This document shows, piece after piece, positions 17,353-64,000 of a stretch of DNA of 64,000 nt. Source of the DNA: an uncultured Phycisphaerales bacterium (GTDB lineage Bacteria > Planctomycetota > B15-G4 > CAYZWU01); NCBI GenBank assembly GCA_964620445.1, contig CAZUHB010000013.1, positions 5,077-69,076 of the forward strand, read 5' to 3'. Under the pieces are notes generated by a model, which saw nothing but the letters and a program-made list of their open reading frames with translations, made no database searches and was not told the origin of the DNA. The first letter of the stretch is position 1; every line of letters starts with the position of its first letter. A program made the translations under genes and the position numbers.

Positions 17353-18729
17353 ATGAATCAGATGGACTGCCGCATGGTCCTGAAATATTGCGAGATCATT
17401 GACGAATTCATCAAGGTCCGCGTGTTCACGGATGAAGACGTATCGGAGCTGCTCCACGTCAAAACGGTACCGAACAAGAAAGCCTATCTGCAGCTCGTGA
17501 TCAACTCCAGCATCATCAACTACCACGACGAGATTTTACCCCTGTTCAAGAAATTCAACAGGGTCTACAAGCCGGAGGCTCTCGAGGAACTGCTCTATCA
17601 GATTTGCGTGGAAGTCAATCCGCACATGGAGATCCACCAGGTCGCCATTCCGTTCGAAGATCAAAGCGGTGCGATGGCGCGTCTCCATCTGATCCAGGAA
17701 AAGAAGCAGAAGAACAGCCGCGAGCTGAAAAAGAAGATTCTCCAGATCGAGAAATCGCTCGGCAAGATGATCATCGGCCAGGAAGAGGCGGTGCGGAGCG
17801 TATCGAAGGCGATCAAAAAGGCCGCCGTCGGCCTCAAGGATCCGAACAAGTCGATCGGCGTCTTCCTCCTCGTCGGACCCACCGGAACGGGCAAGACCGA
17901 GATGGCCAAGGCCGTGTCGAAGCAGCTCTACGGCGACTCGACCAAGCTCGTGCGCGTCGACTGCTCCGAGTACGCGCTTCCGCACGAGTACGCCAAGCTG
18001 ATCGGCGCCCCGCCCGGATACATCGGCCACAACGAGGGCGGCTTCCTCACCGACAGTGTGAAGGAGAAGAAAAGCTGCGTCGTTCTCTTCGACGAGATCG
18101 AGAAGGCCCACTTCAAGGTCCACAACCTCCTGCTTCAGCTCATGGACGAGGGCTACCTCACCGACAGCAAGGGGTGCCGCGTGCCCTTCGCCAACTGCAT
18201 CATCTTCCTCACCTCCAACATCGGCGTGGAAGACATCGAGAGGTACCGCAACCGGATGGGATTCGACTTCAAGAAGCGCCAGAGGCTGGACAAGCTCACC
18301 GCGAAGGAAGCGATCGGACTCGCCATGAAGAGAATCTTCCGGCCCGAGTTCATCAACAGGCTCGACGACACGATCGTCTTCAACAGCCTGACGCGCAAGG
18401 ATTGCGTCCAGATCGCCGCCAATCAGCTCAAGGAAGTGGCCTCCTATCTCAAGACGACGAAAACGACGCTCGAGTTCACGCCCAGGCTCGAAAAGTTCAT
18501 CGGCGAGGAAGGATACAGCTACGAGTTCGGCGCGAGAGAAGTGCGCCGGCTCATCCGGACACTGATCGAGAATCCCCTGTCCGAAAAGATTCTGGCCGGG
18601 GATTTCAAGACCGGCGCCACGCTGGAAGCCGATGTGCGGAGGCAAAAGATCGTTTTCTCCGAGAAGAAGAGAAAAAAGGAAACGAAGAAAACGACGAAGA
18701 AATCGAAAAACGTCAGCCTTTCCCACTGA
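17353..18729 (+). CDS. AAA+ ATPase, ClpA/ClpB D2-type single module with uncharacterised N-terminal domain
   Basis: GPTGTGKTE Walker A, VVLFDEIEKAH Walker B, sensor and D2-small domain; 130-aa N-terminal region of unknown function; Lys-rich tail. Confidence 0.75.
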   Translation: MNQMDCRMVLKYCEIIDEFIKVRVFTDEDVSELLHVKTVPNKKAYLQLVINSSIINYHDEILPLFKKFNRVYKPEALEELLYQICVEVNPHMEIHQVAIPFEDQSGAMARLHLIQEKKQKNSRELKKKILQIEKSLGKMIIGQEEAVRSVSKAIKKAAVGLKDPNKSIGVFLLVGPTGTGKTEMAKAVSKQLYGDSTKLVRVDCSEYALPHEYAKLIGAPPGYIGHNEGGFLTDSVKEKKSCVVLFDEIEKAHFKVHNLLLQLMDEGYLTDSKGCRVPFANCIIFLTSNIGVEDIERYRNRMGFDFKKRQRLDKLTAKEAIGLAMKRIFRPEFINRLDDTIVFNSLTRKDCVQIAANQLKEVASYLKTTKTTLEFTPRLEKFIGEEGYSYEFGAREVRRLIRTLIENPLSEKILAGDFKTGATLEADVRRQKIVFSEKKRKKETKKTTKKSKNVSLSH

Positions 18730-18787
18730 TCGGAAAGGCTGACAACGATCGTTGACTTGCCTCGCGGCGGTGTGTTATCTCAAGGCG

Positions 18788-20140
18788 ATGAAAACGAAAT
18801 ATATCGCCATTCTGTTCGTACTCGTCGCTTTCCGGCCCGTGATGGCAACGGACGAACTCCCTCCCGGACTCGTCGCCCGGACCGACGAGATCAGCATCAC
18901 CGAAAAAGAATTCCACGATCATCTCATCGCCCTCTACGCCGAACGGGAAACAGGCGAATCCCTTCTCGAACAGCTGATCCACGAGACCGCCCTCAAGCAG
19001 GAGATGGCGCGCCGCAAGGTCCACGTGCCGAACTCCATGGTCGAGGCGCGCTGCGCGGAGCTCGACAGCGCCTTGAAGAGCCATTCGGGAGGACAGAAGG
19101 GCCTTCTCGAATACATCAGCGAACAGAACGTGGACGAGGAGGAGTTCCTGCGAGCGCTCAGGCTGTCCATCGCACACGACATCATGGCGCGCGATGATTT
19201 CGGGTTGGAACGCGATGCGCCGATCCCCCCCGAGAAGCTCAATCTCTGGCTCAAGGAGCTCCTGTCGCGCAAGAAGGTCGTGGTTCACGATCGGGGGGGC
19301 GCCCTGATGGCCACGGTCGACGGGACGGAGATCACGGTCCACGAATTCGGCCAGCGGCTCATCACCCATCTGGGAACGGAACGGGTCACCGGAATCCTCA
19401 ACGAACTCATCGGCATCCGCTTGATTCCGGTCTGGGCGGGACCGCTCGGTCTCGCGCTCACCGACGACGACGTGGAGGAGGAGCTGAGGATCCGGGAGGA
19501 AATACTGCACGGGAAGAAGGGTTTCGAGGAGGTCTCCTATTCCGACTGGCTCAGGGCATCGGCCGGACAGACCATCGACGATCTCAAGAAGTCGGAACGC
19601 TTCCGGGCCGAGGTGCTGATGAAAAAGATCGCCCGCACTCTGCTGACAGAGGATGACCTCGAACGCCACTTCGAGAAGAACCGCAACAAGTACGAGCTCC
19701 GCCACGGCCGGGCCGCGAGGCTGGCGACTATTTATCTCGAAGCGGCCCTCTTTCCGAACGACAAGGTCAGCCGCTCCTTCGAGGACGCTGCCGACGAACT
19801 CAAAGAGCTGAGAAAGCGCATCGAGCGGGGCGAGGCGACCTTCGAGGGGCTCGCCCACATCTGGTCGGAATACAAGGCGGGCGACAAGGTGAAACTCGAA
19901 CTCGGAACTCTCACCCTCGGTGTTTCCGGCTTTCGCGAAATCGTGGACGCCGCTCTCAAAGCCGAAATCGGCACGATCCTCGGACCGTTCCGCACACCGG
20001 AGGGATGCCATCTCGTCAAGGTGCTCGGCCAGAGAGGCCCTGTCGAGTTCGACAGGGTGAGTACGATCGTCGTCGACGACGCCAGGCAGAGCCTGTACAC
20101 CGACATGCTCAAGAGAGCCAACATCAAAAAGAAGTATTGA
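18788..20140 (+). CDS. SurA-like periplasmic chaperone / parvulin-type PPIase
   Basis: Signal peptide MKTKYIAILFVLVAF, a SurA-N-like helical region, and a C-terminal PpiC-type domain (GTILGPFRTPEGCHLVKV). Confidence 0.6.
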   Translation: MKTKYIAILFVLVAFRPVMATDELPPGLVARTDEISITEKEFHDHLIALYAERETGESLLEQLIHETALKQEMARRKVHVPNSMVEARCAELDSALKSHSGGQKGLLEYISEQNVDEEEFLRALRLSIAHDIMARDDFGLERDAPIPPEKLNLWLKELLSRKKVVVHDRGGALMATVDGTEITVHEFGQRLITHLGTERVTGILNELIGIRLIPVWAGPLGLALTDDDVEEELRIREEILHGKKGFEEVSYSDWLRASAGQTIDDLKKSERFRAEVLMKKIARTLLTEDDLERHFEKNRNKYELRHGRAARLATIYLEAALFPNDKVSRSFEDAADELKELRKRIERGEATFEGLAHIWSEYKAGDKVKLELGTLTLGVSGFREIVDAALKAEIGTILGPFRTPEGCHLVKVLGQRGPVEFDRVSTIVVDDARQSLYTDMLKRANIKKKY

Positions 20141-38498: not shown

Positions 38499-38672
38499 TC
38501 GTTCCCTGTCGGAATGCGGTCGATCGGCTTTCGAAATCGAAAGCGCCGCAATCCTGAAGGGGAGACTCCGGTTCGGGAAATATCACCCCTTCATTCGGCG
38601 CGATGTGCTATTAGGATGCGAGCCATTTTTTGACAAGCCGCAAAACACGGCGATGACAGACGCAAACCAAAT

Positions 38673-38689
38673 GGTGAGAATTCATCACC
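38673..38689. promoter_or_regulatory. Near-palindromic candidate operator (GGTGAGAATTCATCACC) just upstream of the RBS of the metal ABC operon
   Basis: Inverted arms GGTGA/TCACC around a GAATTC core, 10 nt before GGGAGGAA-ATG. Confidence 0.3.
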
Positions 38690-38705: not shown

Positions 38706-39662
38706 ATGTTCATAAAAGGAAACCTCGGTCTCGCGATCGTGGCGCTCGCGGCGATTCTGCTCGGCGGCTGCTCGTCCGAAAGCAACGAAGGGAGCGGCGA
38801 TCTGTCGAGCCGGGCCGTACGCATCGTGGCGACCACCGGTATGGTGGCCGATGCGGTGAGCCGTGTGGGCGGCGAACGCGTCGAGGTCAACGCCCTGATG
38901 GGACCGGGCGTCGACCCCCACCTCTACAAGGCCTCGGAAGGAGACGTGATGCGTATGGCCGAGGCTGACGCGATCTTTTACAACGGCCTCCACCTCGAGG
39001 GGAAACTGACCGAGGTCTTCGAACAGATGAAGAGGCGCGATATCCGCACCGTGGCGGTTGCCGGAAGCATCGATCCCTCCCGTCTCCTCAGCCCGCCCGA
39101 ATTCGAGGGGGCCAAGGATCCCCACATCTGGTTCGATGTGAGCCTCTGGATGATGGCCGTGGAAGCGATCCGCAATGCGCTCGCCGAGCTCGATCCGATT
39201 CACAAGGGCACCTACGAGGCGAATACCTCGGCCTACCTCGGAGAACTGGCCACTCTCCACCGGTACGTCCAGGACGAGACGAACAGGATCCCCGAAGCCC
39301 AGCGCGTGCTCATCACCGCCCATGACGCCTTCAACTATTTCGGCAGAGCCTACGGTCTCGAGGTGCGGGGGCTTCAGGGGATCAGCACCGCGACCGAGGC
39401 CGGAACGGGCGATGTGCAGGAACTCGTCGCCTTCATCGCGGAGAGAAAGATCCCCGCCATGTTCGTCGAATCCTCCGTTCCCAGACGCAGCATCGAGGCT
39501 GTCCAGGCTGCCGTGCGCGCAAGGGGATTCGAGGTGCAGATCGGAGGAGAGCTCTTCTCCGACGCCATGGGATCTCCGGAGAGCGCCGAGGGCACCTACA
39601 CGGGGATGGTGCGCCACAACATCGACACGATCAGAGCGGCTTTGTGCGGACGATCGGAATAA
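38706..39662 (+). CDS. Metal (Zn/Mn/Fe) ABC transporter substrate-binding lipoprotein (TroA/ZnuA cluster 9)
   Basis: Lipobox LGGCS; conserved metal-ligand His/Asp positions of the TroA fold. Confidence 0.85.
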   Translation: MFIKGNLGLAIVALAAILLGGCSSESNEGSGDLSSRAVRIVATTGMVADAVSRVGGERVEVNALMGPGVDPHLYKASEGDVMRMAEADAIFYNGLHLEGKLTEVFEQMKRRDIRTVAVAGSIDPSRLLSPPEFEGAKDPHIWFDVSLWMMAVEAIRNALAELDPIHKGTYEANTSAYLGELATLHRYVQDETNRIPEAQRVLITAHDAFNYFGRAYGLEVRGLQGISTATEAGTGDVQELVAFIAERKIPAMFVESSVPRRSIEAVQAAVRARGFEVQIGGELFSDAMGSPESAEGTYTGMVRHNIDTIRAALCGRSE

Positions 39663-39689
39663 TTCTGTCAACCCCCTCGGAGGTGCGCC

Positions 39690-40454
39690 GTGCCCGAACA
39701 ACAAAAAGCGATCGAGGTTCGCGATATGACGGTCGCCTATCGTGACCGTCCCGTGCTCTGGGATGTCGACCTCGACGTTCCGGCCGGACTGCTCATGGCG
39801 ATCGTCGGCCCGAACGGAGCGGGAAAGACCACTCTCATCAAGTCGATCCTCGGTCTGGTGCGGTCCACCGCCGGTCAGGTTCTGATCCACGGGCGACGGT
39901 ACGACGAGGTGCGCCGGCTCGTGGGATACGTGCCCCAGCGCGGCAGCGTGGACTGGGACTTCCCCACCAGTGTTCTCGACGTGGTCACCATGGGCCGCTA
40001 TGCCCACCTCGGGTGGATCCGCCGGCCGGGCCGCGCCGATCGCGACGTCGCCCTGCGCGCCCTGGAAAAAGTCGGCATGGCCGAATTCTCCAGCCGGCAG
40101 ATCAGCCAGCTCTCGGGCGGGCAGCAGCAGCGCGTCTTTCTGGCGCGCGCGCTGGTTCAGGACGCGCGTGTCTATTTCATGGACGAACCGTTCCAGGGTG
40201 TGGACGCGACCACCGAGCGGGCCATCATCGGCCTTCTCAAAGAGCTGCGTGCCGACGGAAAGACGGTGGTCGTCGTTCATCACGATCTGCAGACCGTTCC
40301 CGAGTATTTCGACTGGGTCACACTCCTCAATGTACGCCGTATCGCGTCCGGCCCGGTGGACGAGGTTTTTACCGACCAGAACCTGAGGCTCGCCTACGGC
40401 GGCAGGGTGGCTTTCATGAGCAGCGCGATCCAAGGGCGCGCCTCGGAGAAATGA
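39690..40454 (+). CDS. Metal ABC transporter ATP-binding protein
   Basis: Walker [10 protein letters not shown], signature LSGGQQQR, Walker B VYFMDEP. Confidence 0.9.
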
Positions 40455-40455
40455 G

Positions 40456-41595
40456 ATGGATCTGCTCCGGCTGCTCGAGGAACTCCTCTTCGACTACACC
40501 TTGCGAACCGTCGCGCTCGGCTCGGCAATCCTCGGGGTGGTGAGCGGCGTGCTCGGAGCATTCGCCGTCCTGCGCAGACAGAGCCTTCTTGGCGACGCGA
40601 TCTCGCACACGGCCCTGCCCGGCATTGCGCTCGCCTTCATGATCACCGGCTCCAAGGAACCGTTCGTGCTCATCCTGGGCGCCCTCGTCGCGGGTTGGGT
40701 GGGCACCCTCTTCGTGATGAGCGTCATCAATTCGACGCGCATCAAGAGCGACTGCGCGCTCGGGCTCGTTCTCTCCGTCTTCTTCGGGTTCGGACTGGTG
40801 CTTCTCACATTCATTCAGAGGCGGCCTGGAGCGACCCAGGCTGGGCTCGACAAGTTCCTCTTCGGCCAGGCAGCGGCTCTCATGGAGAAGGACGTGCTCA
40901 CCATGGCCGTGCTCGGCGCCGTGGCTCTCGGCGCGCTCGTTCTGCTCTGGAAGGAGTTCAAGCTCCTCAGCTTCGATCCCGAGTACGCGGCGAGCCTCGG
41001 TCTGCCGGTGCGCCATCTCGACGTGCTGCTCACGACCCTTCTGGTGATCGCTATCGTGCTCGGCCTGCAAACAGTGGGCGTCGTGCTCATGAGCGCAATG
41101 GTCGTCGCTCCGGCCGCCGCCGCGCGGCAGTGGACCGATCGGCTGGGAGTCATGGTCGTGCTCTCGGCCTTCTTCGGCGCCCTGGCCGGCGTGAGCGGGG
41201 CCGTGATCTCGAGCACGATCGCCAGGCTTCCCACGGGCCCGACCATCGTACTCTGTGTGAGCGCTCTCGTGGCTTTCTCCATGCTCCTCGCACCGGCGCG
41301 CGGAATGGTGTGGACCTGGCTTCGCCAGGCGCGCAACCGGAGGGACCTCGTTGCCGAGGCGGTACTCTGCGATCTCTATGAGCTCTCACTCCACCATGAC
41401 CGGAAGGACCACGCCCATTCTCCCGCGGTGCTCAAGGCGATGAACGTGCTCAAGGCCGGCGTGAATCGCACCCTGCGGGAGTTGAGGTCGCGAGGCTGGG
41501 TCGCCGCAACCGCGCGGGGGAGCTGGTTCCTCACACCCGAGGGGAGGGCCGAGGCCACGCGCCTCATTCTCGAGAGGGAAGGAGAAGCGCAATGA
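40456..41595 (+). CDS. Metal ABC transporter permease (ABC-3) fused to a C-terminal DtxR-like winged-helix domain
   Basis: ABC-3 TM core (about 285 aa) plus a roughly 90-aa tail that aligns with the DtxR N-terminal HTH (LYEL...VNRTLRELRSRGWVAATARGSWFLTPEGRAEATRLILER). Confidence 0.8.
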   Translation: MDLLRLLEELLFDYTLRTVALGSAILGVVSGVLGAFAVLRRQSLLGDAISHTALPGIALAFMITGSKEPFVLILGALVAGWVGTLFVMSVINSTRIKSDCALGLVLSVFFGFGLVLLTFIQRRPGATQAGLDKFLFGQAAALMEKDVLTMAVLGAVALGALVLLWKEFKLLSFDPEYAASLGLPVRHLDVLLTTLLVIAIVLGLQTVGVVLMSAMVVAPAAAARQWTDRLGVMVVLSAFFGALAGVSGAVISSTIARLPTGPTIVLCVSALVAFSMLLAPARGMVWTWLRQARNRRDLVAEAVLCDLYELSLHHDRKDHAHSPAVLKAMNVLKAGVNRTLRELRSRGWVAATARGSWFLTPEGRAEATRLILEREGEAQ

Positions 41596-42701
41596 GCGGG
41601 CCGCAGATGGAGATCCAGCTCATCGCCGTGGTGGTGGCAGCCGCATGCGCGCTGCCGGGGGTTTTCCTGATCCTGCGCCGGATGGCACTCATGAGCGATG
41701 CCATCAGCCATGCCATCCTCCTCGGTATCGTGATCGCATTCTTCATCACCGAGGACCTGGCGTCGCCCTTGCTCGTCGTCGCGGCTGCCGCGACCGGCGT
41801 CCTGACGGTGGCGCTCGTCGAGGCGCTGAACCGCACCGGGCTGGTGAAGGAGGACGCGGCCATCGGCCTCGTTTTTCCCATCCTTTTCAGTATCGGCGTT
41901 ATCCTCATCTCGCGCTACGCGGGGAATGTCCACCTCGACACCGATGCCGTTCTCCTCGGCGAACTCGCCTTTGCACCATTCGACAGGTTCGAGGTTTTCG
42001 ACACCGACATCGGTCCCCTCAGTCTTTACGTGATGGGCGGCATCCTGCTGATCAACCTGCTCTTCATCGGTCTCTTCTTCAAGGAGCTCAAGCTCGCCAC
42101 GTTCGACGCCGGGCTTGCCGCGGCGCTCGGCTTCTCGCCGGTTCTGATTCATTACGGACTGATGACGCTCGTGTCGATCACTGCCGTGGGAGCCTTCAAC
42201 GCGGTTGGTTCGATCCTGGTGGTGGCCCTCATGGTGGCTCCGCCGGCGGCCGCCTACCTGCTCACGAACAGCCTGAGCCGCATGATGGGACTGAGCGTTC
42301 TCATCGGCGCGGCAAGCGCGATCGGCGGATACTGGACCGCCCACGTTCTGGACACATCGATCGCGGGATCGATGGCCACCGCGGCCGGTTTCATTTTTCT
42401 TCTGACCTTCCTGCTCGCGCCCGAACGGGGAATCGCGGCGATCGCCCGCCGACGGCGCCGCCAGAGGTGGCAGTTTGCATTGCGCATGCTCACCGTCCAT
42501 CTCTTCAACCACGAAGGCCTGCCCGAGGCGGCCGAGGAGTGCCGCGTCGACCATCTCCACGACCATATCAGCTGGGATCCCCTCTTTGCGCAACGGGTCG
42601 TGCGCTTCGCGGAGCGCCGTCGTGCGGTGATCGAAAAGGACGGACTCCTGGCACTCACCGACGAAGGCCGCGCCATCGCGCGTCAAGCCGTGGTCGATTG
42701 A
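41592..42701 (+). CDS. Second metal ABC transporter permease (ABC-3) with a divergent C-terminal DtxR-like winged-helix extension
   Basis: ABC-3 core plus a roughly 85-aa tail ending GLLALTDEGRAIARQAV (DtxR-wing-like); ATGA overlap with the upstream permease. Confidence 0.75.
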   Translation: MSGPQMEIQLIAVVVAAACALPGVFLILRRMALMSDAISHAILLGIVIAFFITEDLASPLLVVAAAATGVLTVALVEALNRTGLVKEDAAIGLVFPILFSIGVILISRYAGNVHLDTDAVLLGELAFAPFDRFEVFDTDIGPLSLYVMGGILLINLLFIGLFFKELKLATFDAGLAAALGFSPVLIHYGLMTLVSITAVGAFNAVGSILVVALMVAPPAAAYLLTNSLSRMMGLSVLIGAASAIGGYWTAHVLDTSIAGSMATAAGFIFLLTFLLAPERGIAAIARRRRRQRWQFALRMLTVHLFNHEGLPEAAEECRVDHLHDHISWDPLFAQRVVRFAERRRAVIEKDGLLALTDEGRAIARQAVVD

Positions 42702-45269: not shown

Positions 45270-45782
45270 ATGGACAAGGCAACCGAACGGATAGTGGAAG
45301 GTCTTCACAGGGCGATCGAAGCCGAGGCGGCAGGATATCACTTTTACATGATGGCGGCGCGCAACACCGACGACAAGCAGGGGAAGGAGATCTTCGAAAC
45401 GCTCGCCGACGAGGAGGTGGACCACCTGAAGTTCCTGAAATCCCAACACGCCTCCTTCCTCGCCACCGGAAAGGCCGATCCGGACGCCGTTCTGGGAAAA
45501 CCGCTCGAGCTGTCGGGCACCAATCCTATTTTCTCCGCCCAGCTCAGGGAACGGGTCAAGGATTCCCACTACGAAATGAGCGCCCTCTCCATCGGTGTGG
45601 AGCTCGAACTCAATGCGATGAACTTCTACCAGTCCGAGGCCGATGCAACGGATGACCCGGAGGTGAAGGAGTTTTACACGCGCCTCGCCGACTGGGAGTC
45701 AGGTCACTACAACGCCTTGCTGCGGGCACAGGAGGAGTTGAAGGAGGATTACTGGGCGCAGGGAGGCTTTTCGCCTTTCTAG
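45270..45782 (+). CDS. Rubrerythrin-like ferritin-fold diiron protein (no rubredoxin domain)
   Basis: Two ExxH diiron motifs (EEVDHLKF and ESGHYNA) in a four-helix-bundle-sized protein. Confidence 0.65.
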   Translation: MDKATERIVEGLHRAIEAEAAGYHFYMMAARNTDDKQGKEIFETLADEEVDHLKFLKSQHASFLATGKADPDAVLGKPLELSGTNPIFSAQLRERVKDSHYEMSALSIGVELELNAMNFYQSEADATDDPEVKEFYTRLADWESGHYNALLRAQEELKEDYWAQGGFSPF

Positions 45783-55969: not shown

Positions 55970-58900
55970 TCATTCGAGAATAGAGTCTCCCTCTGATCCA
56001 AATTGCACGACGACGCTATGAGCGTCACCATCATCGACGAGAGAAACCGTACCGGATTCTTGAATCTCGCCGTCGACGCTCACACTCTCAACGTCATCCC
56101 CCGGTCCGGTCCGTTCGAAGGAGATGTCATACACCGCTGTTCCATTTCGGTAAACGATCTTGATCCTGTCCCAATCCGGTGGAAGGTGTGGGCGAAATCT
56201 CAGCTCTCCCTTTGAGCGCGTCATGCCGATGAGCGATTCCAGAATTGCCCGGTACATCCAACCGCATGATCCCGTATACCATGTCCAGCCCCCCCGCCCG
56301 CGGTAGGGCGGTCTGGAGTAGACGTCGGCAGCCGCCACATAGGGCTCCACCATGTACGTTTTGATTTTCTCGGGAGTGTCGCCGTGGTTGATCGGATTGA
56401 TCAGCGAGAGCAATTCCCAAGCGCGCTCGTTCTGTCCGAGAGCAGCGTAACCCATCACCGTCCAGACCGCCGCATGGGTGTACTGGCCGCCATTCTCTCG
56501 GACTCCGGGGACATATCCCTTGATGTAACCCGGTTCGAGTTCGGACTCATCAAAGGGAGGATCGAAGAGCTGGATGAGCTTCGCTTCCCGATCGACGAGC
56601 ATCTTGTCCACCGATTCCATGGCGATTTGCGTGCGATCATCCGCTCCCGCCCCTGACAGGGCCGCCCAGGCCTGGGGAATGGAATCGATCCTGCACTCGG
56701 AATTTTCCACCGAGCCGAGAGGTGTTCCATCATCGAAGTAAGCCCTGCGGTACCACTGGCCGTCCCAGGCATGGTTTTCAATGCTGTCCCTCAACCAACC
56801 GCTCTCCTCGGTGAGCCTGTCCAATAGTTCCCCATCACCCCGTTCCCGGGCGAGAGATCTGAATTCCTCCATTACGTGAACGAGGAAAAAGGCAAGCCAG
56901 ACGCTTTCGCCTTTCCCCTGGGCGCCGACGAGATTCATCCCGTCATTCCAGTCGCCGCAGCCCATGAGAGGCAGCCCTCGCTCCCCGAACCGGAGCGCTC
57001 TCAGGAGAGCGCGCACGCAGTGGTCGTAAAGCGTGCCAATCTCTTCGGACCGCGACGGTAAATCGTAATAGGCTTCCTCCCCGACACCGAGCGTCCGGCC
57101 GGTTATGTAGGGAATCTCCTCGTTCAGAACCGCACTGTCTCCCGTGGCCGACACGTAGCGGCACGCCGCGAGCGGCAGCCAGAGGAGGTCGTCGGAAAAA
57201 TTCGTACGGACGCCGCGACCCGACGGAGGGTGCCACCAGTGCTGGACATCTCCATCGACGAACTGCCGTTCGGCGCTGCGGATTAAGTGCTCGCGCAGGA
57301 TCGACGGATCGGCTTGAACCAGCGCCATCGAATCCTGGAGCTGGTCGCGGAACCCGAAAGCGCCCCCCGACTGGTAAAAGCCCGATCTCCCCCAGATCCG
57401 GCTGGAAAGGGTCTGGTAGAGCAGCCAACCGTTGGCAAGGAAGTTCACTGCCTTGTCGGGCGTCTCCACCTGCACGGTACGCAGCAAACGGTTCCAGTGG
57501 AGCCTCGTGGCGTTGAACGCGCGCCGCGCGGCGTTGCGCCCGCGATGGCGGCGCAGCATCCTGCGCGCCTCGTTGGAATTCCTCCCGCACCCCAGAATGA
57601 AATCGACCTCGCACGACTCACCGGGCTCGAGCGAAACAACGACCTGCAGCGCGGCGCAAGGATCGACAGCAGGGCCTGTGCGCCCCGAAAGCCCAATCCT
57701 GGACATCGCGGCCGGATCGGACATGGTCCCGTTGCGGCCGATGAACTCGGTCCGGTCGGTGGTGAACGTCCGTTCAGGATGGTTGACATCGACGAAGACC
57801 ACCCGTCCGCGAAAGTCGGTATTGAAAGAGTTGCGCGCCAGGATCGCCCCGGTCCGCGGATCGATCGAGGTGGTCACGTGCGGGCTGTTTTTCGTCCGGT
57901 GCTCACCGAGTACGAGCTCGCTATACCCGGTCACGGAGAGACGTCGTGCTCGATCCGACCTGTTGTGAAGCTGAATCGTCACGTACTTAACCGGAGCGTT
58001 CGTCGAGACGAAAACGGTCATCCTCGACGCCACACTCTCTTCGGTGTGCTCGAAAATGGTGTAGCCGAATCCGTGCCGGCAAGAATATGGCGTTGGCCCC
58101 GGTGCGGGAAGAGACGTGGGCGACCAGAAACGTCCCGACTCCTCGTCCCTGATGTAGAACGCCTCGCCGCTCCGATCGCTCACCGTATCGTTGTACCAGG
58201 GTGTGAGGCGGAATTCGTGAGCGTTCTCGCTCCACGTGTAGGACCCTCCCGACTCGGTGACGACGGTGCCAAATCCGGGATTTGCCAGCACGTTGGACCA
58301 GGGCGCAGGAGTGACCTTGCCGGGAGCGGTCACGATGACATACTCGCGCCCGCTCCGGCTGAAACCGCCCAGCCCGTTGAAGAAGGAGAGAGATCGCTCG
58401 GGAAGATCCACCTCCTCTGAAACGAGAATGGACTCATCGGCTCTTTCCGTCGGGACAAGAGACGGAGTGGATTCGAACTCGAGGCGCCGGCCGATCTGTT
58501 CAGCCAAACTGCCTCCTCCGTCGGTGATTATGATTCGCGCCACCGACTGCATCAGGATCTGATCGTCCTCGCCAATGTGTTCGATGCTCTTGACAAAGAT
58601 CGATCCCCGCAGATTCTCGAGCGAAACGTCGGTACCGGATGCAACCAGGCCCATGATCTCGTCCTGGAGAGGCTGCCTGTAGCCGGCATGCTCCTCGTTC
58701 CAGATGATCAGATCGACGGGCACGCCCTTGATGTTCCAGTAAGCGTGCGCCTGCACCAGCTGGCGCACGAGGGGCACGTTTTCCTGATCGCTGATCCGGA
58801 GCAGGACGATGGGAAGGTCTCCCGAGATGCTGTAACCCCATAGGCCCGACTGGCCGCGCTTGTTTTTCATCAGGACGGCCGGCGGCGCGCGGTGGGCTGG

Positions 58901-61900
58901 ATTGGAATAGATGATCGAGCTCGCGAGGCGGCCGAAGAGCTGGGCGTCGGCCTCGGTGGCGTTGAGCTGGCGGAGTACGACCTGGGCGTGGGTCCAGGCG
59001 AGGTCGAAAACCCGTTCCGCCAGCCGGCGGTCATGGTATTTTTCGGCCAGATCGAGAGCATGGTCCCGCGAGACGCTCATACCGGAGACGATGTCGATGA
59101 CGGCTGTTTCCTCGGGCATGATCGTCACGGTTCGCCGTACGGCAACGATCGGATCGAGGACCGAGCCCTCGGCGTTCGACAGCGCGCCCGGAGCATCCAT
59201 GGCCGCGGGGTGGGCGATCGTTCTGCAGCGACCCACGAAGCGAGCCCGGTCGGTTTCGAACGACACCTCGCCCTCGTCGGCCGGAATGGCCACAGCCGTT
59301 TCGTGGAGCGTCATCATGTGAAACATCCAGGGCGGAGTCTCATCCTTGGAGCGCTTGCGGCGCGTGCAGAGCACGGCCGGTGGCTCGCGGACGATCTCGG
59401 TCTGGACGAAGAGGTTGCTGAAAGCGGGGTGGGCCGCGTCATGCGAAGAGGGAACGAGCACGACCTCGGCATAGCTGGTGAGTTCCACGGTGCGCGGCGA
59501 ATCCGACCTGTTGGTGAGACTCACGCGCCGGAGTTCCACGTCGTCCTCGGGAGAGACAGACACCTTCATGTGCGTGTCGAAATCGCCATCTCTCCGCCGG
59601 AATTCGGCCCGCGCCTGAAGAAAGAGAGCCTGATAGTTTTCAGGCTGTCCTCGAAGAGGCTGATGGCCGGCAGACCAAACTTGTCCCGTCTCCACATCGC
59701 GCAGAAAGCAGAATGTCCCCCAGTGATCGCGTGTCGTGTCCTCGTGCCAGCGCGTCACGGCGAGATCGTTCCAGCGGCTGTATCCCCCACCGGAGTTGGT
59801 GATCATCACGCTGTACCGGCCGTTGGACAGGAGATGCACCTCGGGAATCTGCGTGTTGGGATCGTCGAAGATACGCATGAGTGCTTGCTGAGGAGCGACC
59901 GTAGGCGGGACTCCGTCGTGGTCGACTTCGTGGGGGTAGAATGGTTTCGCCTTGGGAATCCTTTCCTGAAGGAGGAGCTCTGTCGCGCGGAAGAGGGGCT
60001 CCTTCAGGAACCGTCTTCGCATGGGACGATCGAGCAGCACGTGGGCCATGGAGAGGAGACTCATTGCCTGGTGATGAGCCATGAACGAGCGGACCACGGC
60101 GTATTCCTTGTCCGGCGGACGCCGAGAGGGAGTAAAGTCGATCGCCTCGTAAAATCCAAAGTCCCCGTAAAATCCCATCTCGGCCATGCGCTGCAGGTTT
60201 GCGCAAGCGCTCCTGGGTGACACCATCAAGGCGAGCGCCGACGCGTAAGGTGCGATGACGAGATCGTCGGCCAAGTCGCGCTTGAAACCGAAACCTGGAA
60301 CGCCGAAGGAGCGGTACTGATAGTTCTTCTGCGTATCGATGGCATTGTAGCCCGACTCTGAGATTCCCCACGGGATACCGCACTGCTTGCCGTACTGCGC
60401 CTGGCGTTCGACCACAGCGCGCAGGCTGCGGCCAAGCAGGGTTCCCTCGTGGTCGGGCATGACCAGGAGGGGCATGAGATATTCGAACATCGATCCGCCC
60501 CAGGAGATCAGCGCGGTCTTACCACCCGAACGGGTCAGAAGACGCCCCAGGGCGAACCAGTGATCCTGCGCGAGATGCCCCTGGGCGATCGCCACGAAGC
60601 TGCTCAGGCGCGCCTCCGATGCGAGGAGGTCGTAGCAGCTCCCGTCGAGTCGGTGTTCGCTCACGTTGTAGCCGATGGCCAGGAGCCGGCGTTTCTTGTC
60701 GAAGATGAAATCGTAGTCGAAGTCGGAGAGCGCCCAGCACTGCGCGGCGAGCGCCTCGATCGACTCGATCCTCTCCGCCGCGTTGCGTGCTGCGGTGCTG
60801 ATGCGCTCCTCCAGGTCGGACAGCCATTGACAAGCTTCGTCGTCGGGGGCGCTGTGTTCCTCGAGACCGGCCGGTGCTTTCTCGCGAATCCTTTCGATGA
60901 TATGAAGGATGCTAGTCTCGGCGTTCGCGAGCAATCGAAGGCTCGGGACGGCATCGAGCTGATCGAGTTCCTCTCTGAGCTGGCGCGGGTCCCCTTCTGC
61001 AGCGCCATTCGGATCGAGCACGCTTGCGGCGCGAGGCAGGATATCCAGCCATGGAGCGAGACGTTCCATGTCGCTGCAAAGCTCCGCTATCTGGCGAAGA
61101 AGTGTCTTCGTCCACCAGGCCGTCTCCTCATCGAGGCTCGAACCCGCTTTCTGCTCGAAGGCGCGCACCGCCTCATCCGCGTCAGCAACCATGCCCTGCA
61201 ACTGGGAAAGTCGAGTGGGCTCCACCCGCAGCCTCTCAGCGAGCGGACGCAGTGCGTCGACTGCACTAGGATCGATCTTCTCCCTACTCTTGTCCTCCTC
61301 CCTGCGGCGCGGTGCCGCCGTGGCTTGCAGCAGTTCTACGAGCGTGTCAGCCAGACCCCCGGTCGAGGTGAGCGAAATGATCGGGGCGTCGATAATTTCG
61401 AAAAGCCCCTGGCGCAGAGTGAGCAGATGCCCGGCGAGATTTCCGCTGTCCACGGTCGACACGTAGAGCGGGTGGAGCGGTTCGAGAGTGCGAGTATCGT
61501 ACCAGTTGTAGAAATGCCGCCGGAAGCGGTCCAAGCGCCCCATTGTTTCGATCGTCGAAGCGGTCCGTTCGATGAGCGTGCCGGCAGGGATGAAACCGAG
61601 ATCGTAAGCAGAGAGGTTTGCGAGAAGCGCTAGGCCAATATTCGTGGGAGAGGTTCGGTGGGCGAGTGCCTCGGTGGGCTGCTCCTGGAAATTGTCGGGC
61701 GGCAGCCAGTTCTCGTCTGGACCGACGAATTCTTCGAAATACCTCCATGTCCGCCGCGCCGATGCCCGGAGAAAGTCTTTCTTCTTATCCGAAAGACGGA
61801 CGGTCTTTCGAATCAACGGAAGGCTCGCCCACCAGGCAATGAGGGGCGACAGAAACCAGAGTCCCAGGATGGGCGCTGCCGCTGCCAGGCTCTCGGGCCG

Positions 61901-64000
61901 CGTCCAGGCAAGCCCTGCGACAAGTGCGATGGAGAAGGCCGGTGCAGTCCACATCGAACGCAGGTGGCTCAAAAGATCGGATCGACTCGCGTCGAGCGCG
62001 TCGCTCGAGGGAGTCCATTGCAAGAGGCGCCGTCGTGTCACGAAGAGTCTCGCCAAGGTCCGAAGTATCGCGTCGAGGCAGAACATGGTTTCGAAAGGAA
62101 GCATGACCACCGTGAACAGGGCCTGCGTGAGGTTGCGCGCCACTGCGCGCGAAGCCCAGGAGAGGTGGATACCCAGCGTCACATTGCCTGGACGGCGGGA
62201 GAGATCAATCCAGGAGAGAAGGAAGGGCGTCAGAAAGATCGTTCCCACGGCCAAGAGGGTCCAGACCAGGGGTTCGGCCCAGAAAACCCATCCGACGATG
62301 AGCAGAAGGGTGAGAGCCGCCGGCACGAGACTGCGCCTCAAATTGTCGAAGATCTTCCAGCGAGACACCGCGGAGAGGGGATTAGGCGACTGGCCATCAC
62401 CTGCAGAGGGCACGCTGCCAAAAAGCCACGATGCGATCTGCCAGTCGCCGCGGATCCAGCGGTGCCGGCGGTTGACATCGACCATGTAGCGTGGTGGAAA
62501 ATCCTCGTAGAGCTGCACCGTGGTCACCAGGCCGGCTCGCGCGTGACACCCCTCGAGGAGGTCATGGCTCAGGATGCGGTTCTCGGGAAAGCGTCCTTCG
62601 AGTACACGCACAAAAGCGTCCACGTCGTAGATCCCTTTGCCGATGAACGATCCCTCGCCGAAAAGGTCCTGGTAAACGTCCGAAACGGATCGCGTGTACG
62701 GATCGATCCCGGGATCTCCCCCAAAAAGACGTAGGAACCAGGACGGGCTCGCATTGTTCATCCCCACTGCCAAACGGGGCTGAAGGATGGCGTAACCATC
62801 GAGGAGACGGTTCCCGGTTCGATCGTAGAGAGGCTGGTTGAGCGGATGGGCCATCGCTCCCGCGAGCGCCCGGGCCGCGTCGCGCGGCAACTCGGTATCC
62901 GTGTCGAGTGTGATCACGTACTTGATCTCGGACAATATCGTCGTGTCACCCACGATCATGGAAAACGGATCTCGCGAACCTCCTCGCAGGAGAGCGTTCA
63001 GATCTGAAAGCTTACCCCGCTTGCGCTCGTACCCCATCCAGACCTTTTCACGGTGATTCCATCGACGCGGTCGGTGAAGAAGAAAAAACCGGTTTCCGTT
63101 CCGTTTGCCATACCGGGCATTGAGCCGCTCAACGCCCTTTCTGGCCAGTCTGACGAGCCGATCGTCGTCCGGCATGTTCTCTTCCGACGCATCGCGAAAA
63201 TCGGTGAGGAGACAGAAGTGCACCCTCCTGTCTCTGTTCCCAAGGAAACGGATCTCCAGGCCTTCAAGGAGATCGCGCACACCAGCCGGGCTGCCGAGCA
63301 GGGTGGGAACAACGACGAGTGTGCGCGATTCTGACGGGATCCCCTTGGAGTAGTCCATGCTCGGCCGGACGTCGGGGCTGACGACCACTGTGGCGAACCA
63401 GTTGACGATCCCGACGGTGAAGTGGCTCGCGCAGAGAAGCATCAATATTCCGAGAACGAGAAGTGCGCCAAAGGGAAGACCAAGCGCTGAGCCCAGGAGA
63501 ATCACTCCTGCGGTGATGACGCCCGTGGTGAGAGTGATCGCGCCAAGGTAGAGTGGAGCCGCCCTGAGGCGACCGAATTTCCTCACACGCTTGGCAAGGC
63601 CAAGGCGAACTCCCAGACGGCGTTCCAAGGCTGGAAGCCCCTTGCCGACCAGATAGTGTCCCACGTGCCGGTTGCGGTCGTGCGCTTCAGGAGAAGTTGA
63701 ACCAGCTTTCGCTATTTCCACTACCTCCGTTGCAACCTCTGTCTCGGTGCAACCGCAGGAGCGTGCCAGGATTTCCACAACATGGCGATAGAGATCACGC
63801 GAATCGAAATCCATACGATCGTAGACGCTCGCCGGATCGGTCCGGAGAACCTTGTGGACCGCGCTAACCGATTCGACGAACTCGCGCCAGTCGATGGCTT
63901 CGAGAACGCGGAGGCTGCCGATACTGTTGCTGATCGTCACCAGATCGGCAGCCTGTTTCTGGCTCTCCGACTGGACCAGGTCTTTGATGGCCAATCCCTG
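55970..64000 (-). CDS. Cyclic beta-1,2-glucan synthase (NdvB/Cgs/ChvB-like: TM region, GT84 domain, GH94 domain); N-terminus beyond the window
   Basis: GT84 core (ILSEIKYVITLDTDTELPRDAAR, HRWIRGDWQIASWLF) and C-terminal GH94/cellobiose-phosphorylase-like regions (ISWGGSMFEYLMPLLVMP, YTHAAVW); more than 2674 aa, open at the window end. Confidence 0.85.
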   Translation of the reverse strand, partial: QGLAIKDLVQSESQKQAADLVTISNSIGSLRVLEAIDWREFVESVSAVHKVLRTDPASVYDRMDFDSRDLYRHVVEILARSCGCTETEVATEVVEIAKAGSTSPEAHDRNRHVGHYLVGKGLPALERRLGVRLGLAKRVRKFGRLRAAPLYLGAITLTTGVITAGVILLGSALGLPFGALLVLGILMLLCASHFTVGIVNWFATVVVSPDVRPSMDYSKGIPSESRTLVVVPTLLGSPAGVRDLLEGLEIRFLGNRDRRVHFCLLTDFRDASEENMPDDDRLVRLARKGVERLNARYGKRNGNRFFLLHRPRRWNHREKVWMGYERKRGKLSDLNALLRGGSRDPFSMIVGDTTILSEIKYVITLDTDTELPRDAARALAGAMAHPLNQPLYDRTGNRLLDGYAILQPRLAVGMNNASPSWFLRLFGGDPGIDPYTRSVSDVYQDLFGEGSFIGKGIYDVDAFVRVLEGRFPENRILSHDLLEGCHARAGLVTTVQLYEDFPPRYMVDVNRRHRWIRGDWQIASWLFGSVPSAGDGQSPNPLSAVSRWKIFDNLRRSLVPAALTLLLIVGWVFWAEPLVWTLLAVGTIFLTPFLLSWIDLSRRPGNVTLGIHLSWASRAVARNLTQALFTVVMLPFETMFCLDAILRTLARLFVTRRRLLQWTPSSDALDASRSDLLSHLRSMWTAPAFSIALVAGLAWTRPESLAAAAPILGLWFLSPLIAWWASLPLIRKTVRLSDKKKDFLRASARRTWRYFEEFVGPDENWLPPDNFQEQPTEALAHRTSPTNIGLALLANLSAYDLGFIPAGTLIERTASTIETMGRLDRFRRHFYNWYDTRTLEPLHPLYVSTVDSGNLAGHLLTLRQGLFEIIDAPIISLTSTGGLADTLVELLQATAAPRRREEDKSREKIDPSAVDALRPLAERLRVEPTRLSQLQGMVADADEAVRAFEQKAGSSLDEETAWWTKTLLRQIAELCSDMERLAPWLDILPRAASVLDPNGAAEGDPRQLREELDQLDAVPSLRLLANAETSILHIIERIREKAPAGLEEHSAPDDEACQWLSDLEERISTAARNAAERIESIEALAAQCWALSDFDYDFIFDKKRRLLAIGYNVSEHRLDGSCYDLLASEARLSSFVAIAQGHLAQDHWFALGRLLTRSGGKTALISWGGSMFEYLMPLLVMPDHEGTLLGRSLRAVVERQAQYGKQCGIPWGISESGYNAIDTQKNYQYRSFGVPGFGFKRDLADDLVIAPYASALALMVSPRSACANLQRMAEMGFYGDFGFYEAIDFTPSRRPPDKEYAVVRSFMAHHQAMSLLSMAHVLLDRPMRRRFLKEPLFRATELLLQERIPKAKPFYPHEVDHDGVPPTVAPQQALMRIFDDPNTQIPEVHLLSNGRYSVMITNSGGGYSRWNDLAVTRWHEDTTRDHWGTFCFLRDVETGQVWSAGHQPLRGQPENYQALFLQARAEFRRRDGDFDTHMKVSVSPEDDVELRRVSLTNRSDSPRTVELTSYAEVVLVPSSHDAAHPAFSNLFVQTEIVREPPAVLCTRRKRSKDETPPWMFHMMTLHETAVAIPADEGEVSFETDRARFVGRCRTIAHPAAMDAPGALSNAEGSVLDPIVAVRRTVTIMPEETAVIDIVSGMSVSRDHALDLAEKYHDRRLAERVFDLAWTHAQVVLRQLNATEADAQLFGRLASSIIYSNPAHRAPPAVLMKNKRGQSGLWGYSISGDLPIVLLRISDQENVPLVRQLVQAHAYWNIKGVPVDLIIWNEEHAGYRQPLQDEIMGLVASGTDVSLENLRGSIFVKSIEHIGEDDQILMQSVARIIITDGGGSLAEQIGRRLEFESTPSLVPTERADESILVSEEVDLPERSLSFFNGLGGFSRSGREYVIVTAPGKVTPAPWSNVLANPGFGTVVTESGGSYTWSENAHEFRLTPWYNDTVSDRSGEAFYIRDEESGRFWSPTSLPAPGPTPYSCRHGFGYTIFEHTEESVASRMTVFVSTNAPVKYVTIQLHNRSDRARRLSVTGYSELVLGEHRTKNSPHVTTSIDPRTGAILARNSFNTDFRGRVVFVDVNHPERTFTTDRTEFIGRNGTMSDPAAMSRIGLSGRTGPAVDPCAALQVVVSLEPGESCEVDFILGCGRNSNEARRMLRRHRGRNAARRAFNATRLHWNRLLRTVQVETPDKAVNFLANGWLLYQTLSSRIWGRSGFYQSGGAFGFRDQLQDSMALVQADPSILREHLIRSAERQFVDGDVQHWWHPPSGRGVRTNFSDDLLWLPLAACRYVSATGDSAVLNEEIPYITGRTLGVGEEAYYDLPSRSEEIGTLYDHCVRALLRALRFGERGLPLMGCGDWNDGMNLVGAQGKGESVWLAFFLVHVMEEFRSLARERGDGELLDRLTEESGWLRDSIENHAWDGQWYRRAYFDDGTPLGSVENSECRIDSIPQAWAALSGAGADDRTQIAMESVDKMLVDREAKLIQLFDPPFDESELEPGYIKGYVPGVRENGGQYTHAAVWTVMGYAALGQNERAWELLSLINPINHGDTPEKIKTYMVEPYVAAADVYSRPPYRGRGGWTWYTGSCGWMYRAILESLIGMTRSKGELRFRPHLPPDWDRIKIVYRNGTAVYDISFERTGPGDDVESVSVDGEIQESGTVSLVDDGDAHSVVVQFGSEGDSILE

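Follow-up and report, generated by a model that had tools for sequence, protein, structure and literature searches.

Importers of the Tro/Psa/Znu type, a group of ATP-binding cassette (ABC) transporters, are the main high-affinity route for the uptake of manganese, iron and zinc in many bacteria, pathogens included. How these importers are shut off in replete cells is only starting to be understood. In ZnuBC of Escherichia coli, binding of zinc to a domain at the C-terminus of ZnuC, a zinc-sensing domain described in 2025, locks the complex (PMC12236471). In Chlamydia trachomatis, the repressor domain of the permease YtgC-YtgR (CT069) is released by proteolysis, as known only from experiments in Chlamydia, and acts as repressor of the ytg operon; permease-DtxR fusions have been reported in 11 phyla (PMC5599777). 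In this study, we describe a troABCD-like operon in a stretch of 64,000 nucleotides from an uncultured Phycisphaerales bacterium (metagenomic contig CAZUHB010000013.1; the whole stretch is called the window below). Both permeases of the operon continue past the last transmembrane helix into a soluble tail, referred to as tail 1 and tail 2, which appears to derive from the winged helix-turn-helix (wHTH) of a DtxR-type repressor and carries a histidine cluster of its own.

Permease-DtxR fusions are already known; the wHTH-only form with its own histidine clusters, present on both permeases, is the new element. No description of it was found in the searchable literature, which is incomplete. With YtgC-YtgR the window shares an ABC-3 permease, encoded in an operon of the troABCD/ytgABCD type, with a DtxR-family wHTH right after the last transmembrane helix. 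The differences lie in what follows: proteins of the YtgR type keep domain 2 and its metal ligands, whereas tail 1 ends at about DtxR residue 79, has a histidine cluster that is absent from the full fusions, and is accompanied by a tail on the second permease. A fused DtxR-family domain is present in tail 1, but a complete repressor (wHTH plus domain 2) is not. In an operon of the YtgC-YtgR type from Gemmatales, permease 1 carries a full DtxR and permease 2, unlike that of the window, has 299 amino acids and no tail.

The Treponema operon troABCD(R) has the same gene order as the window. Its TroD has 366 amino acids in Treponema denticola and 367 in Treponema pallidum, close to the 369 found here, and its TroC has 304 and 298, respectively (PMC2628430, Table 1). 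The initial annotation of this DNA had supposed that typical TroC and TroD proteins both end at about 280-300 amino acids, which is wrong for TroD. To judge by length and orthology only, TroD-type permeases, those of Treponema included, probably carry tail 2 as a matter of course. The Treponema operon differs from the window in that TroC has no tail 1 and a free-standing DtxR-like gene, troR, ends the operon; its architecture resembles that of the Poribacteria loci described below, not that of the window.

An importer operon with two tailed permeases

The operon consists of four co-oriented genes spanning positions 38706-42701 of the window. The genes and the two tails are as follows.

38706-39662, plus strand: TroA-like periplasmic metal-binding lipoprotein, a cluster A-I substrate-binding protein (Pfam ZnuA, 2.3e-79)
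39690-40454, plus strand: TroB-like ABC ATPase (Pfam ABC_tran, 1.5e-30)
40456-41595, plus strand: permease 1, TroC-like, 379 amino acids, ABC-3 membrane domain and tail 1 (Pfam ABC-3, 3e-70, residues 15-277)
41592-42701, plus strand: permease 2, TroD-like, 369 amino acids, ABC-3 membrane domain and tail 2 (Pfam ABC-3, 2.5e-44, residues 10-274)
41302-41592, plus strand: tail 1, basic juxtamembrane helix and a wHTH of apparent DtxR origin, stopping where DtxR domain 2 would start (residues 283-379)
42426-42698, plus strand: tail 2, long basic helix and a predicted wHTH, apparently a distant relative of tail 1 and of DtxR/MntR (residues 279-369)

The best PDB match of the binding protein was T. 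pallidum TroA (1toa; E 6.6e-89, residues 29-314). This is its nearest solved relative, and the operon is therefore that of a troABCD-type divalent-metal importer. Both permeases, whose reading frames share 4 nucleotides, scored above the curated Pfam cutoff for ABC-3 of 20.1 bits (237.1 bits for permease 1 and 152.2 bits for permease 2), and a binding protein of the ZnuA/TroA family and an ABC ATPase are encoded in the same operon, as in ABC-3 importers. The permease segments LLGDAISHTALPG and LMSDAISHAILLG line up with LMGDAISHAVLPG of PsaC, the conserved GDAISH segment, which we take to be part of the coordination site of the PsaC channel. The zinc-sensor motif of ZnuC is CxxxHxxCC (PMC12236471). 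Because the translation of 39690-40454 has zero cysteines, the ATPase lacks a zinc-sensing domain of the ZnuC type.

The extent of the tails was defined by comparison with PsaC, a manganese permease of 282 amino acids with a solved structure (7kyp), which matches residues 15-282 of permease 1 and residues 10-281 of permease 2. Beyond the PsaC end, tail 1 comprises about 97 amino acids (residues 283-379) and tail 2 about 91 (residues 279-369). The open reading frames of 379 and 369 codons with extra soluble tails are as first described. Each tail consists of a basic juxtamembrane helix of about 20 residues (net charge of the segments +4.5 and +5.1) and, after it, a wHTH core of some 75 residues. 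The tails would face the cytoplasm, as suggested by the basic juxtamembrane helices, the cytoplasmic action of YtgR and the purification of PsaC as a C-terminal fusion to green fluorescent protein (PMC8346216).

The length class was kept in all of the best 120 homologues of each permease (65-100% identity across 94-100% of the query): homologues of permease 1 have 372-399 amino acids and almost all of those of permease 2 have 369. Named sources of these homologues include Chloroflexota, Planctomycetota, Deltaproteobacteria and Thermomicrobiales. Tail-bearing permeases recur in several phyla and are not peculiar to this genome; a survey of relatives had been suggested in the initial annotation, and the tailed form was indeed encountered across phyla. 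Mean column conservation was 0.85 in the membrane domains and reached 0.65 and 0.71 in the tails. Among genomes, the nearest is a metagenome-assembled genome (MAG) of an uncultured member of the Phycisphaerales in the Planctomycetota (locus L005), whose permeases are 89-90% identical to those of the window. Between the two, the ratio of nonsynonymous to synonymous substitution rates (dN/dS) was 0.10 in either tail, with values of 0.08-0.10 in the membrane domains. The tails are functional protein domains under purifying selection like the membrane domains, and not products of read-through or drift.

Relationship of the tails to DtxR-type repressors

Scanned directly against Pfam, the permeases gave no match to PF01325 (Fe_dep_repress) at E <= 1 and none to PF02742 (Fe_dep_repr_C). 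On tail 1, direct Pfam and NCBIfam scans returned sub-threshold matches only (HVO_A0261_N, 5e-4; MarR_2, 0.023; MntR, 0.006), and on tail 2 they returned no wHTH match; a precomputed PF25213 match is present in some homologues. Because the direct scans were sub-threshold or empty, profile-profile comparison and structure prediction were needed to link the tails to DtxR.

AlphaFold2 was run on alignments of the tails alone. The models are confident (predicted local distance difference test, pLDDT, 83.7 for tail 1 and 90.5 for tail 2), and their layout is common to both tails: a long basic helix from the membrane and two more helices precede a beta-hairpin wing, and one last helix closes the domain. 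The top Foldseek matches of tail 2 in the PDB were MntR of Bacillus subtilis and B. halodurans (E 1.5e-3, template modelling score 0.62). Tail 1 matched a mixture of MarR and DtxR-family structures, with the DtxR-family ones among the highest sequence identities (24-32%). When the tail profiles were compared with PDB sequences, DtxR-family proteins (IdeR/MntR/DtxR) came first for both tails at marginal E values (0.016 and 0.3; range listed 0.016-1.3). The wHTH domains of O-methyltransferases and ribosomal proteins were also among the fold and profile matches.

A clearer relationship was obtained with a small DtxR-family reference alignment (A4). It combines DtxR and MntR with three regulators of related loci and with the DtxR portion of P0390, a full permease fusion; as a caveat, P0390 resembles tail 1 more closely than do the free regulators. 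The DtxR and MntR sequences used were validated by strong matches to regulators in the loci. With hhalign, residues 17-92 of tail 1 aligned to DtxR residues 7-79 (probability 95.6%, E 1.3e-8, 73 columns), and tail 2 aligned over a span of DtxR residues 26-77 (probability 84.8%, E 6.6e-6, 51 columns); the two tails aligned to each other with a probability of 70% (E 4e-5). By sequence and predicted fold, both tails appear to descend from the wHTH of a DtxR-type repressor that was fused to a permease, tail 2 being apparently a more distant paralogue of the tail 1 fold.

These results confirm the observation of the initial annotation and support its interpretation in part. Its hand alignment of tail 1 to DtxR has the same register as that of hhalign, and tail 2 is, as it remarked, the more divergent. 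The profile check that it proposed came out divided: the Pfam model Fe_dep_repress found nothing, while profile-profile comparison ties the tails to DtxR/MntR. The predicted structures are winged helices and not the plain amphipathic helices that it had considered as an alternative.

By the predicted models, the tails share the N-terminal wHTH fold with DtxR, IdeR and MntR, and a sequence relation is detectable. Because the alignments end at the boundary between domains 1 and 2, however, the tails lack the dimerisation surface and the canonical DtxR ligands (H79, E83, H98, C/E102, E105, H106); in tail 1, only five residues separate the aligned stretch from the stop codon. The tails differ from these regulators further in having no SH3-like domain and in being tethered to a membrane protein.

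An exhaustive profile search with tail 1 returned 291 clusters at E <= 0.001, and those inspected were C-termini or fragments of ABC-3 permeases. Short matches of 67-81 amino acids were considered as free-standing wHTH proteins and rejected; they start at internal V or M codons and in all likelihood represent fragments or gene calls that were cut short. In P0390 (431 amino acids), the wing is followed by a typical DtxR domain 2 in which H79, E83, E105 and H106 are conserved. A search with P0390 led to at least 120 permeases of 409-479 amino acids carrying PF02742 and these DtxR ligands, with named sources that include Gemmatales, Limisphaerales, Thermoanaerobaculia and Acidobacteriota. A juxtamembrane helix (GLxWxWxR..R.RR) and a wing motif (W.LT..G..EA) are common to the full fusions and tail 1, and for this reason tail 1 is placed in the lineage of the full fusions. 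To judge from these motifs, it is a truncated relative of the permease-repressor fusions of the YtgC-YtgR type.

Histidine clusters, regulators and possible functions

Each tail contains a cluster of potential metal ligands.

41392-41418, plus strand: His/Asp cluster of tail 1, HHDRKDHAH (H313, H314, D318, H319, H321), in the loop that connects helices 1 and 2 of the wHTH (from the translation)
42498-42566, plus strand: His/Glu cluster of tail 2, HLFNHEGLPEAAEECRVDHLHDH, with HxxxHE ending helix 1 and HxHxH in helix 2 (from the translation; helices from the AlphaFold2 model)

In 112 diverse representatives, the histidines were the best-conserved polar residues of tail 1, with His in at least 90% of the proteins at columns 32 and 39 and in 60% at column 37. 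In 120 full DtxR fusions, the share of His at these columns was 0%. In the alignment of tail 2 (A2), no variation was seen at H25, H29, E30 and E38 and almost none at H43 and H47; positions H43, H45 and H47 hold a histidine in 70-90% of the 80 loci found with the A2 pattern, a set that is strongly enriched in Poribacteria and so represents few independent lineages. At the exposed positions of the recognition helix, conservation is only moderate and depends on the clade (AERRR in the group of the window, ALNNR in Poribacteria). In an Acidobacteriota operon with a divergent DtxR gene, permease 1 ends in a full DtxR and the wHTH tail of permease 2 lacks the histidine cluster. The occurrence of the new His/Glu clusters complements that of the canonical DtxR metal sites, and it is mainly for this reason that the clusters are read as replacement metal sites. 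The conserved His/Asp/Glu residues may form metal sites that face the cytosol: HH..DH.H in tail 1 and, in tail 2, HxxxHE of helix 1 opposite HxHxH of helix 2.

Metal sites in this position could serve for hand-off: near the cytoplasmic exit, the tails would pass the ion to buffers or metallochaperones, much like His-rich loops, and regulate nothing. The clusters do lie on domains tethered right after the last transmembrane helix, and they are kept with or without an adjoining regulator. A folded wHTH of 75 residues would, however, be elaborate for a transfer site, and the loss of the clusters from proteins and operons that have a canonical sensory DtxR domain favours sensing over relay. We consider the hand-off role rather improbable.

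Metal might also be uninvolved, with the tails acting in structure or assembly (by stabilising the heterodimer or docking the ATPase) or persisting as slowly decaying remnants, and with the histidines being structural. Such a history would suit the reductive series from full DtxR through wHTH only to a bare juxtamembrane helix. The last form is found in Poribacteria, where a DtxR gene lies upstream, permease 1 is cut down to the juxtamembrane helix and permease 2 has tail 2 with its histidine cluster. Domains of the wHTH type are also often protein-protein modules, as the matches to O-methyltransferases and ribosomal proteins recall. On the other side, the dN/dS of the tails equals that of the membrane domains and their conservation across phyla speaks against decay, while the invariance of His and Glu, and not of core residues alone, indicates ligand chemistry. 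A structural or vestigial role is likewise doubtful.

Regulator genes were sought with phmmer seeds and in precomputed Pfam annotation covering about 2.7-51.6 kb. No Fur, DtxR or MntR gene was found in the 64-kb window, where a divergent Zur or a regulator in an unannotated small open reading frame is possible; the statement that no free-standing regulator lies by the operon agrees with this. The seeds were E. coli Fur, Corynebacterium diphtheriae DtxR and B. subtilis MntR; those for DtxR and MntR were validated by strong matches in other loci, and the Fur seed matched nothing anywhere.

Both wHTH tails and no adjoining regulator were found in the window, in L005 and in loci from Planctomycetota (L094), Thermomicrobiales (L030) and Actinomycetes (L048). 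In the Actinomycetes MAG, the membrane domain and the tail of permease 1 are in different frames (L048:6880-6900) and both membrane domains lie in one stop-free frame; this frame shift at the domain junction is most likely an assembly indel. Three other loci (L039, L092 and L093) have both tails together with a complete DtxR regulator (Fe_dep_repress, Fe_dep_repr_C and FeoA) heading the operon, and their histidine clusters are kept despite that regulator. The DtxR-troABCD operon of L092 is typical except that a gene for an 890-amino-acid FlgD_ig-domain protein (L092:4135-6807) separates the ATPase gene from the permease genes.

In several independent lineages, ordinary regulators are thus encoded alongside the tails. 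For this reason, the absence of a regulator from the window cannot imply that the tails replace one, and a one-component system that replaces the regulator is unlikely. The initial annotation had suggested a membrane-tethered metallosensor, either a one-component transporter-regulator or a wHTH recruited for gating. The sensing and gating part is the one we tentatively retain; the one-component regulator is unlikely, since relatives with the same tails often encode a complete DtxR as well.

The region upstream of the operon was inspected for operators. One candidate had been proposed earlier.

38673-38689, no strand: earlier putative operator GGTGAGAATTCATCACC, 5-bp arms around a 7-nucleotide spacer

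We rejected it as a conserved operator. Its arms are of 5 bp only, the sequence at this place in L005 is unrelated while the adjacent -35 block is identical, and the repeat finder did not report it. Inspection by eye revealed no DtxR/IdeR box in the window promoter. L030 (415-445) and L048 (4297-4330), tail-bearing loci from different phyla with no DtxR gene in the available flanks, share an IdeR/DtxR-box-like sequence of about 29 nucleotides, TTAGkTTCGGCTAAwsTTGrATTTAGT, just upstream of the binding-protein gene. This box is what a trans-acting regulator of the DtxR family would use. Two further elements were observed ahead of the window operon. The block GTGCTATTAGGATGCGAG(C/T)CAT..TTTGACA at 38610-38640, a -35-like hexamer with 20 nucleotides upstream of it, is identical in L005, the rest of the intergenic region having diverged, and may be a real regulatory element. 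Two inverted repeats at 38527-38593 (8 nucleotides, perfect; 11 nucleotides at 91%), after an ispF-like gene and upstream of the transporter promoter, look like terminator-type hairpins.

The same data bear on whether the tails bind DNA. As a reduced YtgC-YtgR, dimerised by the permeases or released by proteolysis, they would act as regulators made metal-dependent by the histidine clusters, and the transporter would repress itself. They match the DNA-binding domain of DtxR in the correct register, tail 1 belongs to a fusion lineage whose Chlamydia member is cleaved and represses its own operon (PMC5599777), the 64-kb window showed no regulator gene, and an IdeR-like box precedes two tail-bearing operons without a regulator (L030 and L048). 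Against this, the dimerisation and metal-binding domain is gone from the tails, and complete DtxR regulators head at least three independent both-tail operons as well as the Poribacteria operons with tail 2. The exposed residues of the recognition helix are poorly conserved compared to the histidine clusters, and the operator candidate of the window is not kept in L005 even at 89-90% permease identity. DNA binding by reduced repressors is therefore an unlikely role, if one that retains some weight. In a further variant, the tails would together make up a heterodimeric 'split DtxR' anchored in the membrane: the dimerisation domain would be replaced by the permease dimer and the metal sites by the histidine clusters, and the uncleaved transporter would bind operator DNA and couple its conformational state or local metal to transcription. 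This we regard as improbable.

We tentatively prefer, as a possibility short of an expectation, that the tails are transporter-borne cytosolic metal sensors that restrain the importer. When cytosolic manganese, iron or zinc rises, the metal would bind to the His/Asp/Glu clusters of the two tails, which the permease heterodimer would hold side by side. The metal-bound tails would then restrain the conformational cycle, a trans-inhibition such as the zinc-sensing domain of ZnuC exerts in ZnuBC. Transcription would stay with an ordinary DtxR-family regulator, which lies beside the operon in many relatives and is presumably encoded elsewhere in this genome. The sensor role would be in keeping with the pattern of conservation, in which His and Glu are the best-conserved polar positions and the recognition helix is variable. 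By analogy, the zinc-sensing domain of ZnuC offers a precedent for autoinhibition by cytosolic metal in this transporter family.

The proposed logic is that of ZnuC, which belongs to the same ABC-3 transporter family: the substrate, once imported, is bound by a cytoplasmic domain of the importer, and the transporter is locked. In ZnuC, that domain is on the ATPase, has an unrelated fold and uses a Cys/His motif, whereas the candidate sensor here is a wHTH on each permease. The regulatory domains of MetN and ModC are also substrate-binding cytoplasmic domains that lock an importer; they too are carried by the ATPase, and their folds are unrelated to those of the tails.

Several points weigh against a sensor role. 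The tails have the fold of a DNA-binding domain, and YtgR, the closest relative that has been characterised, does bind DNA. Net charge was tried as a discriminator between DNA binding and other roles and was discarded, as the wHTH cores (-2.0 and -1.5) are no different from the N-domains of DtxR and MntR (-1 and 0). The tails themselves could in principle recognise the IdeR-like box of L030 and L048. The spatial grouping of the histidines is deduced solely from helix positions and i/i+4 spacing, and the counts of tails co-occurring with regulators come from few independent lineages.

Genomic surroundings and significance

A rubrerythrin-family gene (45270-45782, plus strand) lies about 2.5 kb downstream of the importer, beyond two glycosyltransferase genes. 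In L094, rubrerythrin-like and peroxiredoxin genes adjoin the operon, and a rubrerythrin near the importer may be part of a recurring metal and oxidative-stress neighbourhood. Elsewhere in the window, a very long open reading frame of 2674 amino acids was observed at 55970-63994 (minus strand), and the local AT skew at 18001-20000 (+0.20) is well above that of the rest of the window.

A large multi-phylum branch of these importers, probably including the classical TroD of Treponema, has permeases with a conserved, folded and presumably cytoplasmic domain that falls below the thresholds of Pfam and NCBIfam. The forms found in different lineages (full DtxR fusion, wHTH with a histidine cluster, and bare juxtamembrane helix) amount to a series of variants provided by nature. 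Should the tails be metal sensors, the autoregulation of metal import would have been solved a second time and independently, with the DNA-binding domain of a transcription factor re-used as a regulatory module of a transporter.

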